A stretch of DNA of 64,000 nt from Alphaproteobacteria bacterium (GCA_965229675.1 OZ245897.1:1046092-1110091); one strand, 5' to 3'; counted from the stretch's first letter, positions 12,831 through 28,555 are shown. Notes: generated by a model not told the origin, from the sequence alone. Translations and numbers: made by a program.

Positions 12831-14035
12831 AAGGACACTCCAAGCATTTCAGCAACTGTAAACACATCCTTATCACCACGCCCACACATATTCATCACCA
12901 CAATCTTATCCTTATCCATATTTGGAATAATTTTGCCAACATGCGCTAATGCATGAGAAGGTTCAAGTGCAGGTAATATCCCTTCTTGTTTTGCGCAGAG
13001 CTGAAATGCCTCCAATGCTTCATCATCGCGGGCGGCCACATATTCAACGCGCTTTAAATCATGCAACCATGCGTGTTCAGGGCCAATCCCTGGATAATCA
13101 AGCCCTGCTGAGATGGAGTGTGCCTCGATAATCTGACCGTCTTCATCTTGCAAAAGGCTGGTGCGATTGCCATGCAATACCCCAGGACTTCCTTTAAGGA
13201 GGGAGGCCGCATGTTCATCCGTATCCAAGCCTTTTCCCGCCGCTTCAACGCCAATCAAATGCACCGATTCATCATCCAAAAATGGATGAAATAATCCCAT
13301 TGCATTCGATCCCCCACCAATGCACGCAACCAAACAATCAGGTAAGCGTCCTTCCGCTTCCATAACCTGTTCTTTTGTTTCTTTACCGATCACCGATTGA
13401 AAATCCCGTACCATCATCGGATAAGGGTGCGGTCCTGCAACAGTGCCTATGATATAATAAGTATCCTCGACATTTGCGACCCATTCGCGCAAAGCTTCGT
13501 TCATTGCGTCTTTAAGCGTTGCTGAACCTGAATGGACTGGCACGACTTCTGCGCCCAATAGCTTCATACGAAAGACATTTGGCGATTGCCGTGCAACATC
13601 GCTTGCGCCCATAAATACCCTGCAAGGTACATCAAATAAAGCACAAACAGTTGCAACGGCTACCCCATGCTGCCCCGCCCCTGTTTCAGCAATAATTCGT
13701 CCTTTTCCCATGCGCCGCGCCAATAGGATTTGTCCAAGCACATTATTGATCTTGTGGCTACCTGTATGGTTAAGCTCATCCCGCTTGAAATAAAGTTTTG
13801 CGCCACCATAATAATGGGTAAGCCGTTCCGCAAAATAAAGCGGACTTGGCCGCCCTGAATAATGGCGATTATAATAAGCAACCTCCTTGGCAAAATCGGG
13901 ATCGTTACGCGCAGCTTTATAAGCGTCCTCAACTTCAAGGATTAACGGCATCAGCGTTTCGGCAACGAATCTGCCACCGAACATGCCAAATTTACCTGTT
14001 TCATCAGGCCCCATCTTATAGGAATTATGTAACAT
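12827..14035 (-). CDS. trpB: Tryptophan synthase beta chain
   Basis: PLP enzyme with HTGSHKINN (PLP-Lys) and GGGSNAMG motifs. 402 aa. Confidence 0.9.
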
Positions 14036-14059
14036 CTTGGCTTTTACTCCCGCCCTTAT

Positions 14060-14100
14060 TTTTTAAGAAAAAAGCACCGCATCTTATGATGCGGTGCCTT
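14060..14100 (-). terminator. Rho-independent terminator downstream of the substrate-binding-protein gene
   Basis: Perfect 10-bp stem GCACCGCATC/GATGCGGTGC (14074-14083 and 14088-14097) with a 4-nt loop, followed on the minus strand by a T-run. Confidence 0.55.
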
Positions 14101-14125
14101 ATTCTTAGGTAAAATAAAGATTAGC

Positions 14126-15361
14126 TTAGCGAAGGGTTTCAACCTTTGTTAAGGTGCCATCTTTAACAAGATTCACACTATAAACACCAGATACATCACC
14201 AACTGAGTCAAAATCAAGTGACCCGCTAGCCCCTTCATAATTAATATCTTTGCCTGCTTTTAATAAGGCAACTGCCTTATCCCATTCACCAGGGCGAACA
14301 ACTTCACCAGGCGCAGAGGCAACTTTACGCAATGCTTCGGATAATCCTTGACGGCTATCTGAACCATTTGCTTCAATCGCAAGAGCTGCCAAATACATTG
14401 CATCAAAACTGGAAGCAACATAAGGACCATCTGGCGTGACTTCCTTATCAGCAGCTTCAATCATTTGTGCAAAATTACGATAAGAATCATTATCTGTTTC
14501 CACCGTGTTGGTTGTCCACCAGCTATTGCCCGTCAGGTTCGCAGCACCAATTTCATCAACCATTGCTTGGGCGGCCATGCCATCTGCGCCAACATAGCGT
14601 ACAAATAATCCATTTTCCAATGATTGCCGCAGTAATACATTACCACCAGCATTGTAATAAGAGAAAATTACCAGCGTATCTGCACCGCTTCTTGCTAAGG
14701 TTGCAAGCTCAGAACGATAGGAATTTTTTTCAGGCTCATGTACCTGATCACCAGAAATCGTTCCGCCACCTTTGGTAAATTCTGTACGAAATACATTTGC
14801 AATCCCGACATTATAATCATCATTGGCAAAGGTTAGCGCAACATTATCCATCCCCATCCCTAGGATATAGCTTGCGATTGCAGCCCCTTGGAACGCATCA
14901 GAAGGCGCAGTACGATATAATAGATCATTATCATCCATTGAGGTAATGGCAGGGGATGATGCCGATGGTGAAACCATAACGGTTCCAGAAGTAATCGAAG
15001 CATTTTCAGCCGCCGCAATCGTAGCCCCTGAACAAACTGGACCAACGATCATGCTAACCAATTCAAGGCTAATTAGCTTTTCAACTGCGTCAACAGCAGG
15101 TTGTGGGGAGCATTGACTATCAACCAATGGCGCAACCAAATCTTGACCCAATACCCCACCTTTGGAATTAATATCATTAATTGCAATTTGTGCGGCTTCA
15201 ACCATGGGGGCAACCAGTGAAGGAATCGGTCCCGTGACCGCCATCGCAACACCAACTTTAACTTCCGCTTCAGCAGAGTTTGTCATAAACGACAATCCAG
15301 CAACCGCTGAAAGCCCGAAAGCAATTTTTGTCATTGAGGATTTTAATAATCCATATTTCAT
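14126..15361 (-). CDS. ABC transporter periplasmic substrate-binding protein, branched-chain amino acid (LivJ/LivK-like) family; orphan
   Basis: 411 aa with an N-terminal signal peptide (MKYGLLKSSMTKIAFGLSAVAGLSFMTNSAEA) and a type I periplasmic-binding fold pattern. No permease or ATPase genes are adjacent. Confidence 0.65.
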   Translation of the reverse strand: MKYGLLKSSMTKIAFGLSAVAGLSFMTNSAEAEVKVGVAMAVTGPIPSLVAPMVEAAQIAINDINSKGGVLGQDLVAPLVDSQCSPQPAVDAVEKLISLELVSMIVGPVCSGATIAAAENASITSGTVMVSPSASSPAITSMDDNDLLYRTAPSDAFQGAAIASYILGMGMDNVALTFANDDYNVGIANVFRTEFTKGGGTISGDQVHEPEKNSYRSELATLARSGADTLVIFSYYNAGGNVLLRQSLENGLFVRYVGADGMAAQAMVDEIGAANLTGNSWWTTNTVETDNDSYRNFAQMIEAADKEVTPDGPYVASSFDAMYLAALAIEANGSDSRQGLSEALRKVASAPGEVVRPGEWDKAVALLKAGKDINYEGASGSLDFDSVGDVSGVYSVNLVKDGTLTKVETLR

Positions 15362-22073: not shown

Positions 22074-22583
22074 ATGCGGCCAATGATTGAAAATGCGTTG
22101 ATCGTTGCCTTATGGTTAGAAAATGAAAGTAAAAAAGACTGTTATCGTTTGCAACCCACGCATCTCCATCTTTTGCTTTATCAAGCACAAGTAATTTACA
22201 CCTTGGAAGCGCCAGGTTCCATGTTAATGCCCGCACAATTTGCTGCCTTTAAGGATGGCCCGCGTGAACCCACCCTTTATGCGATTATGAGTGAATTGCC
22301 TTATCTTGGTGATGCGCCACCTTTAACCGATGAGCCGCAAGCATTTTTAGATCGCTTTTGGTCAAAATTTGGGCATAAACAGGCTAAAACCCTATTAAAA
22401 GAAATTCATAATCATCCGCCATTTTCTAAAAGCCTTAAGCGCGGGGAAGGCTCAATCATTCCATTGGATACGATTATTGATTATAGCAAACAATATAAAC
22501 AGCGTAAGGATTTTATCAAAGTTGCCGATGGTCGCCATCTTATGCGATGGACACCACAACGCCATAAAGCGGCGCAACGATAA
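22074..22583 (+). CDS. Panacea-domain (DUF4065 / SocA-like antitoxin-type) protein
   Basis: The N-terminal half matches the DUF4065 pattern: ...HLHLLLYQAQVIYTLEAPGSMLMPAQFAAFKDGPREPTLY (K/H-L-x-K-L-L-Y-x-A-Q...W..GPV.P..Y). Confidence 0.55.
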   Translation: MRPMIENALIVALWLENESKKDCYRLQPTHLHLLLYQAQVIYTLEAPGSMLMPAQFAAFKDGPREPTLYAIMSELPYLGDAPPLTDEPQAFLDRFWSKFGHKQAKTLLKEIHNHPPFSKSLKRGEGSIIPLDTIIDYSKQYKQRKDFIKVADGRHLMRWTPQRHKAAQR

Positions 22584-22589
22584 AAATTT

Positions 22590-23780
22590 TCAGTCTTGAA
22601 CAGTTAATGTTTTTTGAAATAAGGCGAATATTGCCGCAATCAAAAGAATAATCCCACCTGCAATTAATCCAGTTGATAAATCCGCACTATAATCTGAAAG
22701 GTAACCTGCGCCGATTGGTCCTATCGTCTGGCCAATTGAAAAAGCGGTTGTATAAAGTGCAATTGCACCGCCCCATTGTGCCTTAGGTAGATTTTTCTTA
22801 CTAAATGCTGTTACTGCAGTTGGCGCAATAAGAAAAGATAGGCCAAATAAAATCGCCGAGACCATTACCCCAATCCATCCATAAAAAAATATGGGAAATA
22901 AGGTGCCAACTGCGGTTGCCAGCGAAGAAGCCGCCAAGGGAAACCCATTATTATAGCGTTGAAGCACATGCCGCCATAAGAAAGGGGCAATCATAACTGC
23001 CCCGCCGATTAATCCCCAGCATAGCACAACCATCGCCACAGGTGCGCCATTTTGTTGCAACCAAGCAATTACAAAAGTCATATAGATAATATAACCAATC
23101 GCGAAAATGAAATATCCCACTAAAGAGGGAAAAAGACGCCTTATTGGTAATCCAAATTGCGTAGATTGTGTTTGTTTTGCCGCAAAATAATTATAAAAAA
23201 ACAAACATAATAACGTTAAGCCTAGGCTGATTGAACCCAAAATAATCCATGCAGTTCCCCAAGCAGCATCACCAATAATTGCAAACATTGGGGGTAATAT
23301 CAGTGCGGTTGCTAGCATACCAGCCCCAACGCCACCAAAATAAATTGCAATGGCTAACGCATTTTTTAAAGCATGTTCTGACCAAAATGCCGCAGCAATC
23401 ACTGCCCCTGAAATAAATACAGCCGCACCGCCTATGCCAGATAATATTCGTGTTAAATTTAATAGGTAAAAATCATTGGTTAAACCTGAACCTAGTAATG
23501 AAAGCGAGGTTAATAGCATCCCAGCTAAAAATAATTTCACAGGTTGCACATGATAACTAAATAACAAAGCCAATACTGCGCCGATTAAATATCCAAGTGC
23601 GTTGGTTGTATTAATCCATCCTGCTAACGCATAAGTCCAGCCAAGCTCTGTTTTCATGGAAGGTAGGATCAAAGCATAGCCAAAGCGCGCAAAGCCATTA
23701 CCAACCGCAGGGCCAAGTGCCAGAATGATCAAAGGAATCCATGAACGCATTTTAAATTTTTTTAAGATAAACAGGAACAA
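22590..23780 (-). CDS. MFS-family transporter (probable efflux/export permease)
   Basis: 396 aa with about 12 predicted TM helices and glycine-rich loops typical of MFS. Transcribed divergently from the carrier-protein cluster together with the TetR gene. Confidence 0.7.
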   Translation of the reverse strand: MFLFILKKFKMRSWIPLIILALGPAVGNGFARFGYALILPSMKTELGWTYALAGWINTTNALGYLIGAVLALLFSYHVQPVKLFLAGMLLTSLSLLGSGLTNDFYLLNLTRILSGIGGAAVFISGAVIAAAFWSEHALKNALAIAIYFGGVGAGMLATALILPPMFAIIGDAAWGTAWIILGSISLGLTLLCLFFYNYFAAKQTQSTQFGLPIRRLFPSLVGYFIFAIGYIIYMTFVIAWLQQNGAPVAMVVLCWGLIGGAVMIAPFLWRHVLQRYNNGFPLAASSLATAVGTLFPIFFYGWIGVMVSAILFGLSFLIAPTAVTAFSKKNLPKAQWGGAIALYTTAFSIGQTIGPIGAGYLSDYSADLSTGLIAGGIILLIAAIFALFQKTLTVQD

Positions 23781-23795
23781 GAATATATTTGATTT

Positions 23796-24473
23796 TCAAG
23801 CATGATCAACAGTTTCAAAAGCGGTAGGTGCTTTAACAATCGAAAGCGCAGATTGAAGGGCATAATCAATTGGTTCAGGCGCTTGCTGAATATAAGATTC
23901 AATAATTGCGCCATCCCATAGCATAAGAATTTGTTGGGCTTTAACTTCGGCGTTTTTTGCGTTCATATATTGTAGAAGCGTTTGTTCAATTTCTCGTTTG
24001 ATCCATAATTTGTGATTACGGACAAGCTGATGCACTTCACTATCAGGATCGCTCACTTGAACGGCAGAATTCATAAACATACACCCCCTAAAATTATCTT
24101 CTTTTCTAAGGCAAAAAACAATATCAAATAAGGTTTCAATACCCAATACAGGATCATTTTTATCCTTAAAAGCTTCTTTGACCATTTCACGCCGCTTATT
24201 CAGATAACGTTCCAGCACCGCAATGGTTAAATCATGCTTATTTTTAAAAATATTATAAAGGGACATTCTGGATACATTTGCGGTTTCGATAATTTCTGTA
24301 ATTCCAACCGAAGGAATACCCTTTTGATACATTAATTTAGAGGCCGCATCAATTAACCGTTCCCTTGCCCCGCTTTGATGTTTGATAACCCTTTGATTTT
24401 TATCGTTAGGTGTATTTTGTTTAAGCGTATCTTTTTGATCAGCCTCATGCTTTTTCTTTTGTTTTTTCATCAT
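23796..24473 (-). CDS. TetR-family transcriptional regulator
   Basis: TetR_N HTH: RERLIDAASKLMYQKGIPSVGITEIIETANVSRMSLYNIFKNKHDL, with a Lys-rich N-terminal tail. Confidence 0.75.
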   Translation of the reverse strand: MMKKQKKKHEADQKDTLKQNTPNDKNQRVIKHQSGARERLIDAASKLMYQKGIPSVGITEIIETANVSRMSLYNIFKNKHDLTIAVLERYLNKRREMVKEAFKDKNDPVLGIETLFDIVFCLRKEDNFRGCMFMNSAVQVSDPDSEVHQLVRNHKLWIKREIEQTLLQYMNAKNAEVKAQQILMLWDGAIIESYIQQAPEPIDYALQSALSIVKAPTAFETVDHA

Positions 24474-24587
24474 TGCAGTTCCATAAAAATTACACCTAAT
24501 CCGTTTAAATAAAAAAAATATAGTTTTTTAGTAATTTGTTGTTTTTGGATGCTTGACTCCCATTAAGCAGACCGATATAAAATTAGG

Positions 24588-24603
24588 TAGACCGATCAGT
24601 CTA
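24588..24603. promoter_or_regulatory. Candidate TetR operator: imperfect palindrome TAGACCGATCAGTCTA, with an upstream direct half-site repeat AGACCGAT at 24569-24576
   Basis: A 16-bp inverted repeat with one mismatch lies in the 275-bp AT-rich divergent intergenic region between the TetR gene and the ACP-like gene. Confidence 0.3.
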
Positions 24604-24748
24604 ATTTTATTAATGACGCTAACTTTTGTCAAGTTAAGTTTTTATGTATTAAGCTGTTATTTAAATATTTTAACAATTTAATGTCTTAATTTGGCTAGTT
24701 GAAATTAAAAACGTTTAAAACTTTATTTATTGTGAAGAGAGCCCAACC

Positions 24749-25030
24749 ATGGACGATGCTATTAAAAAAATTCAATCCTATATTGAAGCAAAAAATCCAG
24801 AATATACTAATCTTTCTGTGAATACCGATATTATTGAAAATCGCTTGATCGACTCCCTCCAATTTGTCGAGTTTGTTCTATATATTGAAGAAGTTGCTGA
24901 AGTCACAATTGATATGGAACTTGCTGATATTGAAGATTTTCGTAGCCTTAATAACCTTACTGCTTTTATCGATCGCTTACGACAAGAAGAAAGCGCTACA
25001 GCCCCCACCCTAAGCGAGGTTGAAGCTTAA
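24749..25030 (+). CDS. Acyl/peptidyl carrier protein (PP-binding, ACP-like)
   Basis: 93 aa, acidic. RLIDSLQFVEFVLYIEE matches the ACP phosphopantetheine-attachment region (DSL, with Ser as the presumed 4'-PP site). Confidence 0.7.
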   Translation: MDDAIKKIQSYIEAKNPEYTNLSVNTDIIENRLIDSLQFVEFVLYIEEVAEVTIDMELADIEDFRSLNNLTAFIDRLRQEESATAPTLSEVEA

Positions 25031-25484
25031 AAAAATGCAATTTGCCGAGGATTATAAAAAGGGTGATATTTATTACTTGGGTAGTTATCAGCTTGAAGCA
25101 GAAGAAATGATTACATTTGCAACCCAATATGATCCACAACCTTACCATTTAAGCGAGGAAGAAGGTGCAAAATCTCCTTTTAATGGTCTGATTGCAAGCG
25201 GTTGGAATATTGCTGGTATATGGATGAAGCTTTATGTCACCCATATGCTGGACGGCGCGAAGGTTTTTGGCTCCCCAGGTGTGGACGAAGTTCGGTTTAA
25301 ACAACCTGTGCGCCCAGGTCAAATCCTAGAAGGTAAGGTTGAGATTTTAGACCGTTTGCCTTCTTTTTCAGATAAAAGCATTATGATCATCCGTAAATAT
25401 GGAACGTTGAGCGTTGCGGGCGATGACCGTCCTGTTTTCAGCCTTATTCTTAATAGTCGCTTTGCAAAAAGGACATATTACTGA
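25020..25484 (+). CDS. MaoC-like hot-dog fold protein (dehydratase/hydratase or thioesterase-like)
   Basis: 154 aa. It has the MaoC signature region FNGLIASGWNIAG...PVRPGQILEG. Confidence 0.65.
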   Translation: MKLKKMQFAEDYKKGDIYYLGSYQLEAEEMITFATQYDPQPYHLSEEEGAKSPFNGLIASGWNIAGIWMKLYVTHMLDGAKVFGSPGVDEVRFKQPVRPGQILEGKVEILDRLPSFSDKSIMIIRKYGTLSVAGDDRPVFSLILNSRFAKRTYY

Positions 25485-26350
25485 TGAAGGCTGTTTCTTA
25501 TACGGCACAATGGACTGCAGCAATCAGGGCGCGTGAAAGCACACTTGCCGAAGGGCGTTTGTTCAATGATCAGCTGGCAGAAGAGCTTGCACAACCAGAT
25601 GGTTTTCGCTTACTTGAAAAATATAAAGGTGGAGGTGTACAAGAATTTGTGATCATTCGTACCCGCTATTTCGATGACGCGATTCAGGCAGCATTAGATC
25701 ATGATCAATTTCGTCAGATTGTTTTTATTGCAGCTGGCATGGATACCAGAGCTTTTCGTCTAAACTGGCCAGATGGTGCAGTGCTTTATGAGATTGATCA
25801 TGAAGGTTTACTTGAAGAAAAGCAAAAACGCCTGTCAAAATTGGGGGCATCGCCAAACGTAAAACGGATTGAGGTCGCAGCCGATTTTTCACAGCCATGG
25901 ATTAATTCTCTTATCAATGCAGGCTTCTTACGTGATCAAAAAACTTTATGGGTTGCTGAAGGTTTATTATTTTTTCTTGAACAAAAGGAAGTTATCGACC
26001 TGCTTGAAGTAACGGGTGGGGCTTCTGCGCCTCATAGTCGATTGTTAACGGATATGAATAATAATATTTTGTTGCAAAGCCCGATGAGTCGATTTTTCAT
26101 GGAAACACTTAAAAGAGATGGGACACCATGGCGATTTGGTACCAATGCCCCCAGTGAATTTTTAGGCAGCCATCATTGGCAGGTGATTGAGCTTAAAGAG
26201 CCAGGGCAAACCAAGGCAGGGCTTACGCGATGGCCCTATGAAACCCACGATAGTGCAATAAAAAATGTGCCAAGAAGCTGGCTTATTCAAGCGCAGATTG
26301 ATCACAACCGAACATTATTTAATAATGAAAGAGAGGGTATATGCGCATAG
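25484..26350 (+). CDS. SAM-dependent methyltransferase of the LCM/TcmP (putative O-/carboxyl-methyltransferase) family
   Basis: TRYFDD...FIAAGMDTRAFRL...YEIDHEG...WVAEGLLFFL match the PF04072 Leu-carboxyl methyltransferase-like family. Confidence 0.7.
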   Translation: MKAVSYTAQWTAAIRARESTLAEGRLFNDQLAEELAQPDGFRLLEKYKGGGVQEFVIIRTRYFDDAIQAALDHDQFRQIVFIAAGMDTRAFRLNWPDGAVLYEIDHEGLLEEKQKRLSKLGASPNVKRIEVAADFSQPWINSLINAGFLRDQKTLWVAEGLLFFLEQKEVIDLLEVTGGASAPHSRLLTDMNNNILLQSPMSRFFMETLKRDGTPWRFGTNAPSEFLGSHHWQVIELKEPGQTKAGLTRWPYETHDSAIKNVPRSWLIQAQIDHNRTLFNNEREGICA

Positions 26351-27201
26351 TCGGAGGGTGGCTTGATGTTCAGCATCGCCTTGAAAAAACGCTTGATACT
26401 TTGTTTGAGCTACCCACGCATCAACATATTCACTTTGATTCCATTTTATCGATTGAGGAATTAGATAAGATTGATTATGCGCGTAACTTCCCGCATCTGA
26501 CTTGCCTTGGTTGCGCCTTGGCAGATAAAACCCATCAAGGGCTTTCGGATAATGAACTTAGCTTGAAATCCGCCGCCAGAATAGGAAATACAAGATTTGC
26601 GCTTTTACCAGCGACTTGTTTTAAAGTCTATCTTTCACTTGAAGGATTGGAGCTTAACCATAGCCATCATCTTGGCTGTAGTGCTTCATGTTTTCGCAAT
26701 GAAGACAAGGCGTTGGATGACTATCGTGGTCTTAATTTTACGATGAAAGAGTTTGTTTGCGTTGGTAATCAGATGGATGCAAAACGCCATATTGAACAAG
26801 GCATAGCACGCGTTAGTTTGTTATTTTAACGGCTTGGTATTCCGTTTAATATTGAAAATGCCATGGATCCTTTCTTTGATAATAAAGCTTCTCAGGCGAT
26901 TCTTTCAAAGCTTTCCCCAACAAAACGGGAATTCATATTTGATGGCCATGCCGTGGCTTCAGCGAACTTTCACCGCAATTTCTTTGGTGAAAAATTATCA
27001 ATTACCCTTAATGGTGAAGCAGTTAATACAAGCTGCGTTGCTTTTGGTATTGAACGATGGCTAGCAATGCTCCGCCAGATTTTTGTCAAACCAGAAAATG
27101 CGCTTTATGCCTTGAACGAATGTATGGTTGATTACCATATTGAAACCGTTCTTGGCACCTCTTCACGACAAGAAAAAGTTACAGAAGGAATAACAAAATG
27201 A
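26341..27201 (+). pseudogene. Class II aminoacyl-tRNA-synthetase (SerRS)-like amino acid:[carrier protein] ligase, interrupted by a single in-frame TAA at 26827-26829
   Basis: Both halves are in the same frame. The upstream half has SerRS motif 2 (SCFRNEDKALDDYRGLNFTMKEFVCVG, compare [26 protein letters not shown]). The downstream half has motif 3 (ITLNGEAVNTSCVAFGIERWLAML, compare TLNGSGLAVGRTLVA). There is no N-terminal tRNA-binding arm, and the total is about 285 aa. Confidence 0.6.
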
Positions 27202-28067
27202 TTGAAGCTAAACGGATGGATCGCCTGATTTCTCTTTCACATTCACATAAGGAATCATGTGATATTTACACACAGTTTGATTGGCCAGAAGCCCTTGCAG
27301 TTGATCGTTTGTGGTGCGATGAAGACCTGCTAACAACATATGACACAGAAATTCATGCACAATTAACCGATGAACAAAAATATCATTTAAGCAAGTGGGA
27401 GGCGATTAATTTTTGTAGCCTTAATGTTCATGGGATTAAAACGGTTTTGGAATTTGTTAGCCGCATTATCTATAGCCGCCGCTATGAACCCATTTCAGAA
27501 TATTTGCATTTATTTTTGTCCGAAGAAAATGATCATATGTGGTTTTTTGCAAAATTCTGTTTGATGTATGGTGGTAAGCTTTATCCTGCTTTCGCCTTTC
27601 CTGTTGGCAAGCCAAATAATCCTGTTGAAAATGACCTATATATGTTCGCAAGCACATTGATTTTTGAGGAGTTTGTCGATTTTTATAATCATCGTGTTGG
27701 CAAAAATAAGGAGGTTCACCCTGTTATTCAAGCGATTAATCATCACCACCACATTGATGAATCGCGTCATGTGTCTTTTGGCAGAGAGATTGTTAAAAGC
27801 CTATTTGATGAGCTATGTGAACAAAATGAAGACCCAGAACAACGGGAACGCATTAGCAAAACCGTTAAAGGGTTAATTGATCATTTTACGGGGCTAATGT
27901 ATAATGCCCGTGCTTATAAAGATGCAGATATTGCGCTTGGTTTAGGGTTTAAAACAGCGGCCGCCCTTCGTAATCACCTTCGTAATGATCAGCAACGCAT
28001 TCCCCATCATCATCGCTGGTTTAATCGTACTGAACGTTATTTTGAACGGATTGGACTATTTTCATAA
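27198..28067 (+). CDS. AurF-like diiron (ferritin-like) oxygenase / N-oxygenase family protein
   Basis: 289 aa with spaced carboxylate/His motifs EENDH, IFEEF...NH and IDESRH (E/DExxH), as in PF11583 p-aminobenzoate N-oxygenase AurF/CmlI. His-rich segments HHHH are also present. Confidence 0.55.
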   Translation: MIEAKRMDRLISLSHSHKESCDIYTQFDWPEALAVDRLWCDEDLLTTYDTEIHAQLTDEQKYHLSKWEAINFCSLNVHGIKTVLEFVSRIIYSRRYEPISEYLHLFLSEENDHMWFFAKFCLMYGGKLYPAFAFPVGKPNNPVENDLYMFASTLIFEEFVDFYNHRVGKNKEVHPVIQAINHHHHIDESRHVSFGREIVKSLFDELCEQNEDPEQRERISKTVKGLIDHFTGLMYNARAYKDADIALGLGFKTAAALRNHLRNDQQRIPHHHRWFNRTERYFERIGLFS

Positions 28068-28120
28068 AATAAGTTAGATTATGTGTGCGAAAGTTTTTCT
28101 GCACAAGGCATTAACGATTT

Positions 28121-28555
28121 ATGAAAATTACGATTGATAAAGTTTCGTCATCAGAAGCGTTTCAAAAATGTATGGATATCCGTATTGCCGTTTTTGTTGA
28201 AGAACAAAAGGTACCTATGGAAGAAGAAGTAGATGGAAAAGATAGTGCTTGCGATCATTATTTATTAAGCACTGATGATTCTCCCATTGGTACAGCACGG
28301 ATATTTTTAACAGGCAATATTGCTAAAATTGGACGGGTTGCGATAGTAAAAGATTATCGGGGAAAAGGATTGGGGCGTGCCTTAATGCAACATATGATTA
28401 CTGATATTCGCACAAACCATGAAATAGAAAAAATAAAATTAAGTTCGCAGACCTATGCCATCCCGTTTTATGAAGCGTTAGGATTTATGGTTTGCAGCGA
28501 TGAATATATGGACGCTAAAATTCCCCATAAGGATATGGAATTTATCATATGTTAA
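28121..28555 (+). CDS. GNAT-family N-acyltransferase
   Basis: 144 aa. The acetyl-CoA binding motif VAIVKDYRGKGLGRALM (Q/RxxGxG/A) is present. Confidence 0.7.
   Translation: MKITIDKVSSSEAFQKCMDIRIAVFVEEQKVPMEEEVDGKDSACDHYLLSTDDSPIGTARIFLTGNIAKIGRVAIVKDYRGKGLGRALMQHMITDIRTNHEIEKIKLSSQTYAIPFYEALGFMVCSDEYMDAKIPHKDMEFIIC

Follow-up and report, generated by a model that had tools for sequence, protein, structure and literature searches.

A carrier-protein-centred operon with an interrupted aminoacyl-tRNA synthetase-like ligase gene and an AurF-family diiron oxygenase in an alphaproteobacterial genome, probably devoted to amino-acid N-oxygenation

We analyzed a 64,000-nucleotide stretch of one strand of the genome of an Alphaproteobacteria bacterium (GCA_965229675.1, OZ245897.1:1046092-1110091; hereafter the window, with positions counted from its first letter), in which an earlier note had described a compact tailoring cluster centred on a standalone carrier protein (CP) and a homologue of the amino acid:[carrier protein] ligases. 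Our re-reading of the open reading frames (ORFs) bore out the nine genes of that description and their coordinates. The family assignments given there also hold, on Pfam and NCBIfam matches and, for the CP, on motif conservation and matches in the PDB. On the plus strand, the genes encode the CP (24749..25030), a MaoC-like hot-dog protein (25035..25484), an LCM/TIGR00027-type S-adenosylmethionine (SAM)-dependent methyltransferase (25484..26350), the ligase homologue (26341..27201), an AurF-family ferritin-like diiron oxygenase (FDO; 27198..28067) and a GNAT acetyltransferase (28121..28555). These genes are closely spaced: 4 nt separate the CP and MaoC genes, the MaoC/LCM, LCM/ligase and ligase/AurF junctions overlap by 1, 10 and 4 nt, respectively, and a gap of 53 nt precedes the GNAT gene, whose stop codon lies 3 nt from that of the convergent ybeY gene. 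The divergent unit proposed in the note is present as well, with a TetR-family regulator (23796..24473) and an MFS_4 (YbfB-type) transporter (22590..23780) on the minus strand, the latter gene starting 15 nt past tetR, and an AT-rich control region of 275 bp (24474..24748) between tetR and the CP gene. The window cluster encodes no phosphopantetheinyl transferase (PPTase), no nitronate monooxygenase (NMO) and no adenylation (A) domain of a nonribosomal peptide synthetase (NRPS), the loader being the ligase related to aminoacyl-tRNA synthetases (aaRS). An Rfam search near the cluster found two tRNAs only and no riboswitch.

Most of the encoded proteins passed the cut-offs of the profiles of their families; the CP scored under those for PP-binding domains, and the two halves of the ligase matched nothing on their own. 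The CP is a 93 amino acid, type II protein resembling peptidyl and acyl carrier proteins (PCPs and ACPs), with 25 bits for PP-binding_2 (cut-off 32) and 18 bits for PP-binding (cut-off 20.8), and it matches standalone PCPs and ACPs in the PDB at E = 4e-4 to 8e-4. Ser36 of its DSL motif is the predicted phosphopantetheine attachment site, and R..DSL.FV.F recurs in at least 90% of the 80 homologues encoded next to ligase genes, in agreement with the DSL-type standalone carrier protein first proposed. The MaoC-like protein, for which an alternative TTG start exists at 25020, matches PF01575 (52 bits, cut-off 27) and PDB entry 3exz (E = 4e-17). Its D-P-Q-P-Y-H motif aligns with DRNPVH of the PhaJ-type (R)-hydratase 5cpg, with Q in place of N, and at least 90% of 17 homologues share its DPQ and H residues. 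The methyltransferase matches PF04072 (153 bits) and TIGR00027 (196 bits, cut-off 93.6), and its closest structures are Rv0731c and ML2640. The LCM family carries out carboxyl methylation, as in TcmP and LCMT1.

The ligase gene (286 codons in total) consists of two ORF pieces in the same frame, with a single TAA nonsense codon between them at 26827..26829 (codon 163). The failure of a Pfam search with the halves taken separately is an artefact of this split: with the stop read as Glu, the protein matches PF00587 (tRNA-synt_2b) at 31.1 bits (cut-off 29.3), and the joined ligase matches Bll0957 in the PDB at E = 3e-20. Structure predictions were run on database homologues of the window proteins. 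The AlphaFold model of an intact ligase orthologue (P0001, 97% identical; pLDDT 87) best matches Bll0957 structures (template modelling (TM) score 0.71, E = 1.5e-20, 24% identity), followed by the catalytic domains of methanogen-type seryl-tRNA synthetases (SerRS). Only the catalytic core is present (TMq 0.65-0.70 against TMt of about 0.4 with methanogen-type SerRS), and there is no tRNA-binding domain, the SerRS profile match spanning only positions 311-489 of 518. Among 19 family members, no variation occurs at C93, in motif 2 (C117-F-R119-x-E121) or in motif 3 (G236-x-E-R239), and at least 90% have C232. From the alignment with Bll0957 and established knowledge of SerRS, C93, E121 and C232 are predicted to occupy the Cys/Glu/Cys zinc positions of methanogen-type SerRS. 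The PF00587 and Bll0957 matches, together with motifs 2 and 3, place the split ORF in the class II aaRS core without the tRNA-binding arm, as had been claimed.

Amino acid:[carrier protein] ligases are reported to have been shown in 2010 to charge carrier proteins with Gly or Ala, and to our knowledge their physiological role is still described as unsettled. The window ligase resembles them in its truncated methanogen-SerRS-like core, in motifs 2 and 3, in the Cys/Glu/Cys positions and in the small CP encoded beside it. The known members Bll0957, Bll6282 and Atu2573 are those of Mocibob et al. (2010, 2013), with PDB entries 3mey, 3mf1 and 4h2s. The window ligase differs from them by its identity of 24% to Bll0957 and by lacking the first 50 or so positions of the 318-position NCBIfam profile NF005479, on which the joined protein scores 101 bits, under the equivalog cut-off of 357. 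This identity and this score indicate, at the level of sequence, that the window ligase subfamily is separate from Bll0957/Atu2573. The likeness to the Bradyrhizobium and Agrobacterium ligases drawn in the earlier note therefore stands for the superfamily; these enzymes are not close relatives, and their gene neighbourhoods differ. According to PMC2922099, the conserved neighbourhood of the Bll0957/Atu2573-type ligases contains genes for an ACP, for Atu2574-like proteins and for a Rossmann-fold redox enzyme, along with lipopolysaccharide (LPS)/glycan genes, unlike the window neighbourhood with its AurF-like oxygenase. NCBIfam holds no specific model for the window ligase subfamily or for the oxygenase subfamily, and the names used in databases are generic ("aminoacyl-tRNA ligase-related protein" and "diiron oxygenase").

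Three sibling contigs carrying the operon come from one metagenome (ENA ERZ25074195; 94-97% nucleotide identity), and the loci L001, L089/L091 and L090/L092 all read GAA (Glu) at codon 163 and retain an intact ligase. Since every sibling contig has GAA, the stop is a one-base G-to-T change specific to the window. The TAA separates motif 2 from motif 3 and leaves no fragment that can be a complete enzyme, and the gene is annotated here as a pseudogene. The earlier note treated the two pieces as one ligase, which is borne out; its reading has to be corrected for the nonsense codon. The ratio of nonsynonymous to synonymous substitution rates (dN/dS) between the window ligase and those of the sibling contigs is 0.03-0.04, which means that this gene kept its function until very recently. 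In the genome of the window, the loading step is most probably disabled, and with it the pathway as a whole. A nonsense allele among intact sibling alleles in one metagenome provides a natural knockout for comparison.

It could also be argued that the TAA stems from an error in the assembly or consensus, or that it is suppressed, and that the pathway is active in the window organism. The other genes of the cluster are all intact and under strong purifying selection (dN/dS 0.01-0.27 for every cluster gene showing synonymous divergence), and the GAA codon of the sibling contigs is a single base away from TAA. However, the stop is a clean substitution within otherwise colinear sequence, the downstream ATG at 26863 has no good ribosome-binding site, and motifs 2 and 3 occur together on neither fragment. 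Recoding of the stop was rejected, as TAA is neither a selenocysteine nor a pyrrolysine codon. Taken together, we consider it unlikely that the pathway operates in this organism.

Two further observations concern the ligase genes of other loci. Relatives of 376-410 amino acids are common (P0404, P0432, P0468, P0470-P0472 and others) and carry 110-130 additional N-terminal residues; these proteins may have arisen by fusion, for instance with a carrier protein or some other domain. At L024:9025-10745 (Ca. Spongiihabitans sp., OZ250154) the LCM and ligase genes are both broken, with their pieces in different frames, which reflects either independent pseudogenes or indel errors of long-read sequencing.

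The product of the 27198..28067 ORF belongs to a diiron oxygenase family, as previously assigned, with 98.2 bits for PF11583 (AurF; cut-off 29.6). A phmmer search of the PDB with this protein returned noise only, and a profile built from 43 AurF-like sequences gave weak matches there (R2lox, E = 0.007; AurF, E = 0.43). The AlphaFold2 model of the AurF-like enzyme has a pLDDT of 96, and its top Foldseek matches among PDB folds are AurF (2jcd) and CmlI (5hyh), with TM-scores of 0.60-0.66, ahead of R2-like oxidases. Among 48 homologues, E68, E109-E110-x-x-H113, E157 and H184-x-x-D187-E188-x-x-H191 are invariant. These residues contain a 3-His/4-carboxylate ligand set (E68, E110, H113, E157, H184, E188 and H191), in which the spacing of positions 157, 184, 188 and 191 equals that of E196, H223, E227 and H230 of AurF. 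The invariant set of seven ligands and the AurF and CmlI folds bear out the N-oxygenase-type diiron site proposed for this protein. Because the sequence is too distant from AurF and CmlI, the N-oxygenase assignment rests on the Pfam match, the fold and the ligand pattern.

The window enzyme shares PF11583, the four-helix-bundle diiron fold and the 3-His/4-carboxylate set with HxxDExxH with AurF and CmlI (and also with their carrier-protein-directed relatives PvfB, HamC, Dob3 and VlmB). It differs from AurF and CmlI in having EExxH rather than DExxH and in its presumed substrate, an aliphatic alpha-amine on a stand-alone CP charged by the aaRS-like ligase. PvfB is reportedly an FDO N-oxygenase that acts on an NRPS-tethered amino acid. 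With the CylC/NocO halogenases, the enzyme has in common a distant AurF-like fold and, presumably, a carrier-bound substrate. In PMC12101540, a 3-His/4-carboxylate set is said to be largely confined to N-oxygenases, and PMC12154687 names the seventh ligand, a histidine, as characteristic of FDO N-oxygenases. For CylC-type halogenases, the former source gives a QExxH motif and a predicted displacement of the glutamate equivalent to E196 from the metal sphere, which leaves a predicted open site; the window family, by contrast, has EExxH and an invariant E157. Since the E196-equivalent glutamate is kept and the motif is EExxH, unlike in the halogenases, we infer that N-oxygenation is the most likely chemistry of the diiron enzyme.

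Whether these genes belong together was judged from the conservation of gene order. A search of GTDB species representatives for the ligase family gave at least 547 confirmed stretches, and at E <= 1e-30 the ligase subfamily counts 622 cluster representatives (clusters at 50% identity). The ORFs of fetched loci were searched with the window proteins, and 84 independent loci were scored for genes within 6 kb of the ligase gene and on its strand. A CP was found in 78 of the 84 loci and an AurF-like gene in 77. The loci with this triad of ligase, CP and AurF-like genes come from at least six phyla and include Proteobacteria, Actinobacteria, Acidobacteria, Chloroflexi, Paenibacillus and Melainabacteria. 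The MaoC and LCM genes occur as a pair in 15 of the 84 loci, and MFS_4 in 8. Since this synteny is conserved across phyla, the gene arrangement is far beyond chance, and the genes form one functional unit rather than a set of unrelated neighbours. When neighbouring ORFs were clustered by single linkage, one cluster lumped spurious high-GC ORFs together with the ligase and the CP, and only clean clusters were used.

Three types of cluster were recognized. Type A has the order of the window, CP > MaoC > LCM > ligase > AurF, and was found in nine proteobacterial loci (Ramlibacter, Salinarimonas, Bradyrhizobium, Ca. Spongiihabitans and metagenome-assembled genomes). In a tenth, Type A-like locus (L011), the CP was not detected; homologues of the MFS_4 transporter of the window are present in 8 of these 10 loci. 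A rearranged Type A with an added pyridoxal phosphate (PLP) enzyme, a second methyltransferase and a PPTase occurs in Streptomyces. Type B, which was seen directly in Bradyrhizobium and Robbsia, contains genes for an O-methyltransferase (Methyltransf_2), a CP, an AurF-like oxygenase, an NMO-family protein (PF03060), the ligase, a FlK-type thioesterase and a PPTase. Loci of Achromobacter, Variovorax and Aliidongia are provisionally assigned to Type B by gene order and spacing alone, because they share the order CP > AurF > ligase and an AurF-ligase gap of about 1 kb. Type C is mostly actinobacterial and combines the triad with a conserved 342 amino acid protein, a PPTase, extra CPs and sometimes an aminotransferase-reductase fusion. 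In 34 such clusters, mostly from actinobacteria (e.g., L048:7650-8678), the gene for this protein of about 342 amino acids, which has no Pfam match, immediately precedes the AurF-like gene. Types A and B have the same slots for a methyltransferase, a CP, an oxygenase, a ligase and a hot-dog protein, and this is our main argument for the roles of the LCM and MaoC-like proteins discussed below.

The GNAT gene adjoins the cluster only in L001, L091 and L092, and a TetR homologue is found beside the cluster only in the window lineage (L001 and L091). The proposal that all of these genes act as one unit was therefore borne out for the core centred on the ligase, CP and AurF-like genes and not for the GNAT and TetR genes, which are confined to the window lineage. 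The GNAT protein (Acetyltransf_10, 70 bits) thus appears to be a lineage-specific accessory at best, outside the conserved core.

A precedent exists for the chemistry that we propose. The earlier note had held that no downstream chemistry was known for carrier proteins loaded by such ligases; this must be corrected, as the pathway of He & Ryan (2021), known here through citing papers, converts carrier-bound glycine into a nitronate by means of a diiron oxygenase (PMC9967187, PMC11035981, PMC12183544, PMC12154687). As recounted in three of these (PMC9967187, PMC11035981, PMC12183544), the nitronate is then O-methylated towards enteromycin carboxamide or converted by an NMO to nitrite. The window cluster shares with that pathway a carrier-bound amino acid (presumed here), a ferritin-like diiron oxygenase and a SAM-dependent methyltransferase, and Type B clusters share an NMO-family gene as well. 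A related Micromonospora cluster is annotated in PMC9967187 as using an NRPS A-PCP loader within a line of polyketide synthase (PKS) and NRPS modules. Unlike that cluster, the window cluster has an aaRS-like loader, an LCM-type methyltransferase, a MaoC-like protein and MFS_4, and it stands alone without NRPS or PKS. The He & Ryan cassettes are compared here through the descriptions of citing papers only, and those called "widely distributed" might already include Type B. The N-nitroglycine route was set aside as a precedent, being hydrazine-based and different, and a review of nitration contained no parallel.

Based on the above, we propose, with a probability of roughly 0.6, that the locus is a carrier-protein-dependent amino-acid N-oxygenation operon. 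A PPTase of the host would make the holo-CP, and an intact ligase would activate a small amino acid with ATP and thioesterify it onto the holo-CP. Glycine is the best guess for this amino acid, because it is the substrate both of the only solved relative (Bll0957) and of the precedent pathway; the ligase could also use Ala, Ser or a different amino acid. The diiron enzyme would then use O2 on the tethered alpha-amine to give a nitro/nitronate group or, alternatively, a hydroxylamine or oxime, the former being favoured because Type B clusters carry the PF03060 NMO-family gene. The LCM enzyme would add one methyl group, either on the carboxylate-like oxygen of the nitronate (nitronates are described as carboxylate analogues in PMC11035981) or on the carboxyl group freed on release. 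The MaoC-like protein would act on the thioester, by (de)hydration or by hydrolytic release; Type B holds a FlK-type thioesterase in the hot-dog slot. Finally, MFS_4 would export the small product. The interpretation in the earlier note, with an N-modified aminoacyl metabolite as the predicted product, is largely right in kind; the part of it based on the GNAT protein falls outside the conserved core.

Several points weigh against the proposal of an N-oxygenation operon. Sequence identity of the oxygenase to AurF and CmlI is no more than 12-16%, and the profile of its family barely detects them (E of about 0.4). E110 is preceded by Glu, in contrast to the Asp of AurF and the Gln of the halogenases. 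The methylation for which LCM-family enzymes are known is that of carboxyl groups, not of nitronates. The amino acid used by the ligase is not readable from its sequence. Lastly, the MaoC-like protein keeps the Asp/His pair of hydratases, which suits a beta-hydroxy or enoyl substrate better than the hydrolysis of a nitroacetyl-thioester. The glycine model may therefore be incomplete, or wrong altogether, and the pair may instead point to Ser, Thr or another beta-hydroxy substrate.

The same Asp/His pair, with its need for a beta-hydroxy or enoyl substrate, is what gives some weight to a second alternative, in which the diiron enzyme performs C-H chemistry (beta-hydroxylation, desaturation or halogenation) on a carrier-bound substrate, yielding a beta-hydroxy or enoyl thioester for the MaoC-like protein to act on. 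PF11583-like ferritin folds do include the CylC/NocO halogenases, which act on acyl-ACPs, and the oxygenase is very distant from AurF and CmlI. Nevertheless, all seven N-oxygenase ligands are invariant, including E157, which aligns with E196 of AurF, the motif is EExxH rather than the halogenase QExxH, and the NMO-family gene beside the oxygenase in sister clusters fits a nitro/nitronate product; we therefore regard C-H chemistry as improbable. The least probable alternative, that cell-envelope sugars or lipids are decorated with an aminoacyl group provided by the ligase and CP and that there is no free exported product, draws on the envelope role proposed for Mocibob-type ligases from LPS/glycan neighbourhoods (PMC2922099) and on the GNAT gene adjoining the operon in the window, and is very hard to reconcile with the absence of any conserved transferase, glycosyltransferase or lipid gene beside the core in the 15 MaoC+LCM loci, where MFS_4 is the recurrent partner, with the lineage-specific distribution of the GNAT gene and with the membership of the ligase in a subfamily other than that of Bll0957.

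What can be said of these ligases is that a large sister subfamily is almost always encoded together with a CP and an N-oxygenase-type diiron enzyme. This linkage gives a concrete and testable chemistry, the N-oxygenation of a carrier-bound amino acid without an NRPS, and defines a compact operon of five or six genes that is directly expressible. A broader interpretation, offered as speculation that we would not yet back, is that the ligase/CP/diiron triad represents an ancient, phylum-spanning and NRPS-independent route to alpha-nitro/nitronate acids, and that in its MaoC+LCM+MFS_4 version a carboxyl-methyltransferase family was co-opted for O-methylation of the nitronate or esterification of the nitro acid, giving a small exported nitro/nitronate metabolite that acts as an antimetabolite or signal. 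On that interpretation, the orphan amino acid:[carrier protein] ligase superfamily would gain its first physiological chemistry. If the product is a nitro/nitronate acid, such operons would be a general bacterial source of nitronate and nitrite and a toolkit for biocatalytic aliphatic N-oxygenation.

The divergent control region has features that suggest regulation by the adjacent TetR protein, which matches TetR_N at 37 bits and TetR_C_13 under its cut-off. The 1-kb block 24001-25000 has a GC content of 0.324 and is the second-lowest GC stretch of the window. A strong minus-strand promoter-like site (TTGACA-17-TAAAAT) lies at 24632..24604. A direct repeat (ATTAAGCAGACCGAT at 24562-76 and ATTAGGTAGACCGAT at 24582-96, 20 nt apart) is overlapped by a near-palindrome (TAGACCGATCAGTCTA, 24588-24603) that adjoins the promoter-like site. 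The repeat and near-palindrome (24562-24603) form a candidate operator, probably bound by TetR, that overlaps the predicted divergent promoters and through which TetR would control them. The transporter matches PF06779 at 201 bits and is likely an exporter; a homologous MFS_4 gene adjoins the cluster core in 8 loci from other genera. Adjoining the MFS gene of the window is an ORF of 169 amino acids (22074-22583) with a weak match to the SocA/Panacea antitoxin domain (17 bits, under cut-off).

The sibling loci also provide information on the recent history of the operon. L091 corresponds to the window locus on the chromosome of a sibling strain, in which an integrase/Toprim-primase/AAA_25 element (L091:11537-16930) is inserted directly after the GNAT gene; homology between L091 and the window stops at 28544, 11 nt short of the GNAT stop codon. 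A SocA_Panacea gene with a stronger match than that of the 169 amino acid ORF is located in this inserted element. L092 is a relocated copy flanked by insertion sequences (IS; L092:6844-7613 and 13979-14936) that lacks tetR and the MFS gene; an IS with a DDE_Tnp_1 transposase truncates the CP gene at window position 24807, an IS630 lies downstream, and the GNAT gene remains attached to the operon. The idea that the whole cluster is a mobile island was rejected, as L091 occupies the same chromosomal locus and only L092 is relocated.

Nucleotide identity between the window and L091 is 99.9-100% from the MFS to the MaoC gene and 92-97% from the LCM to the GNAT gene. Between the window and L001 it is 88-93.5% from the TetR to the ligase gene and 99.9-100% for the AurF and GNAT genes. 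This mosaic pattern (24198-28544 compared with L001, L091 and L092) points to recombination breakpoints inside the operon, near 25484 and 27198.

Elsewhere in the window, the MiaB protein is 55-59% identical to those of named genera, the named matches including Paracoccus, Pacificispira and Marivibrio. These matches place the host, whose GC content is low (about 42%), as an uncultured alphaproteobacterium. The segment 59457-63185 has a GC content of 31-37%, against about 42% elsewhere in the window, and holds genes for two GT4 glycosyltransferases and for a Wzy_C O-antigen ligase/polymerase-like protein; probably it serves surface-polysaccharide synthesis and was gained by horizontal transfer.

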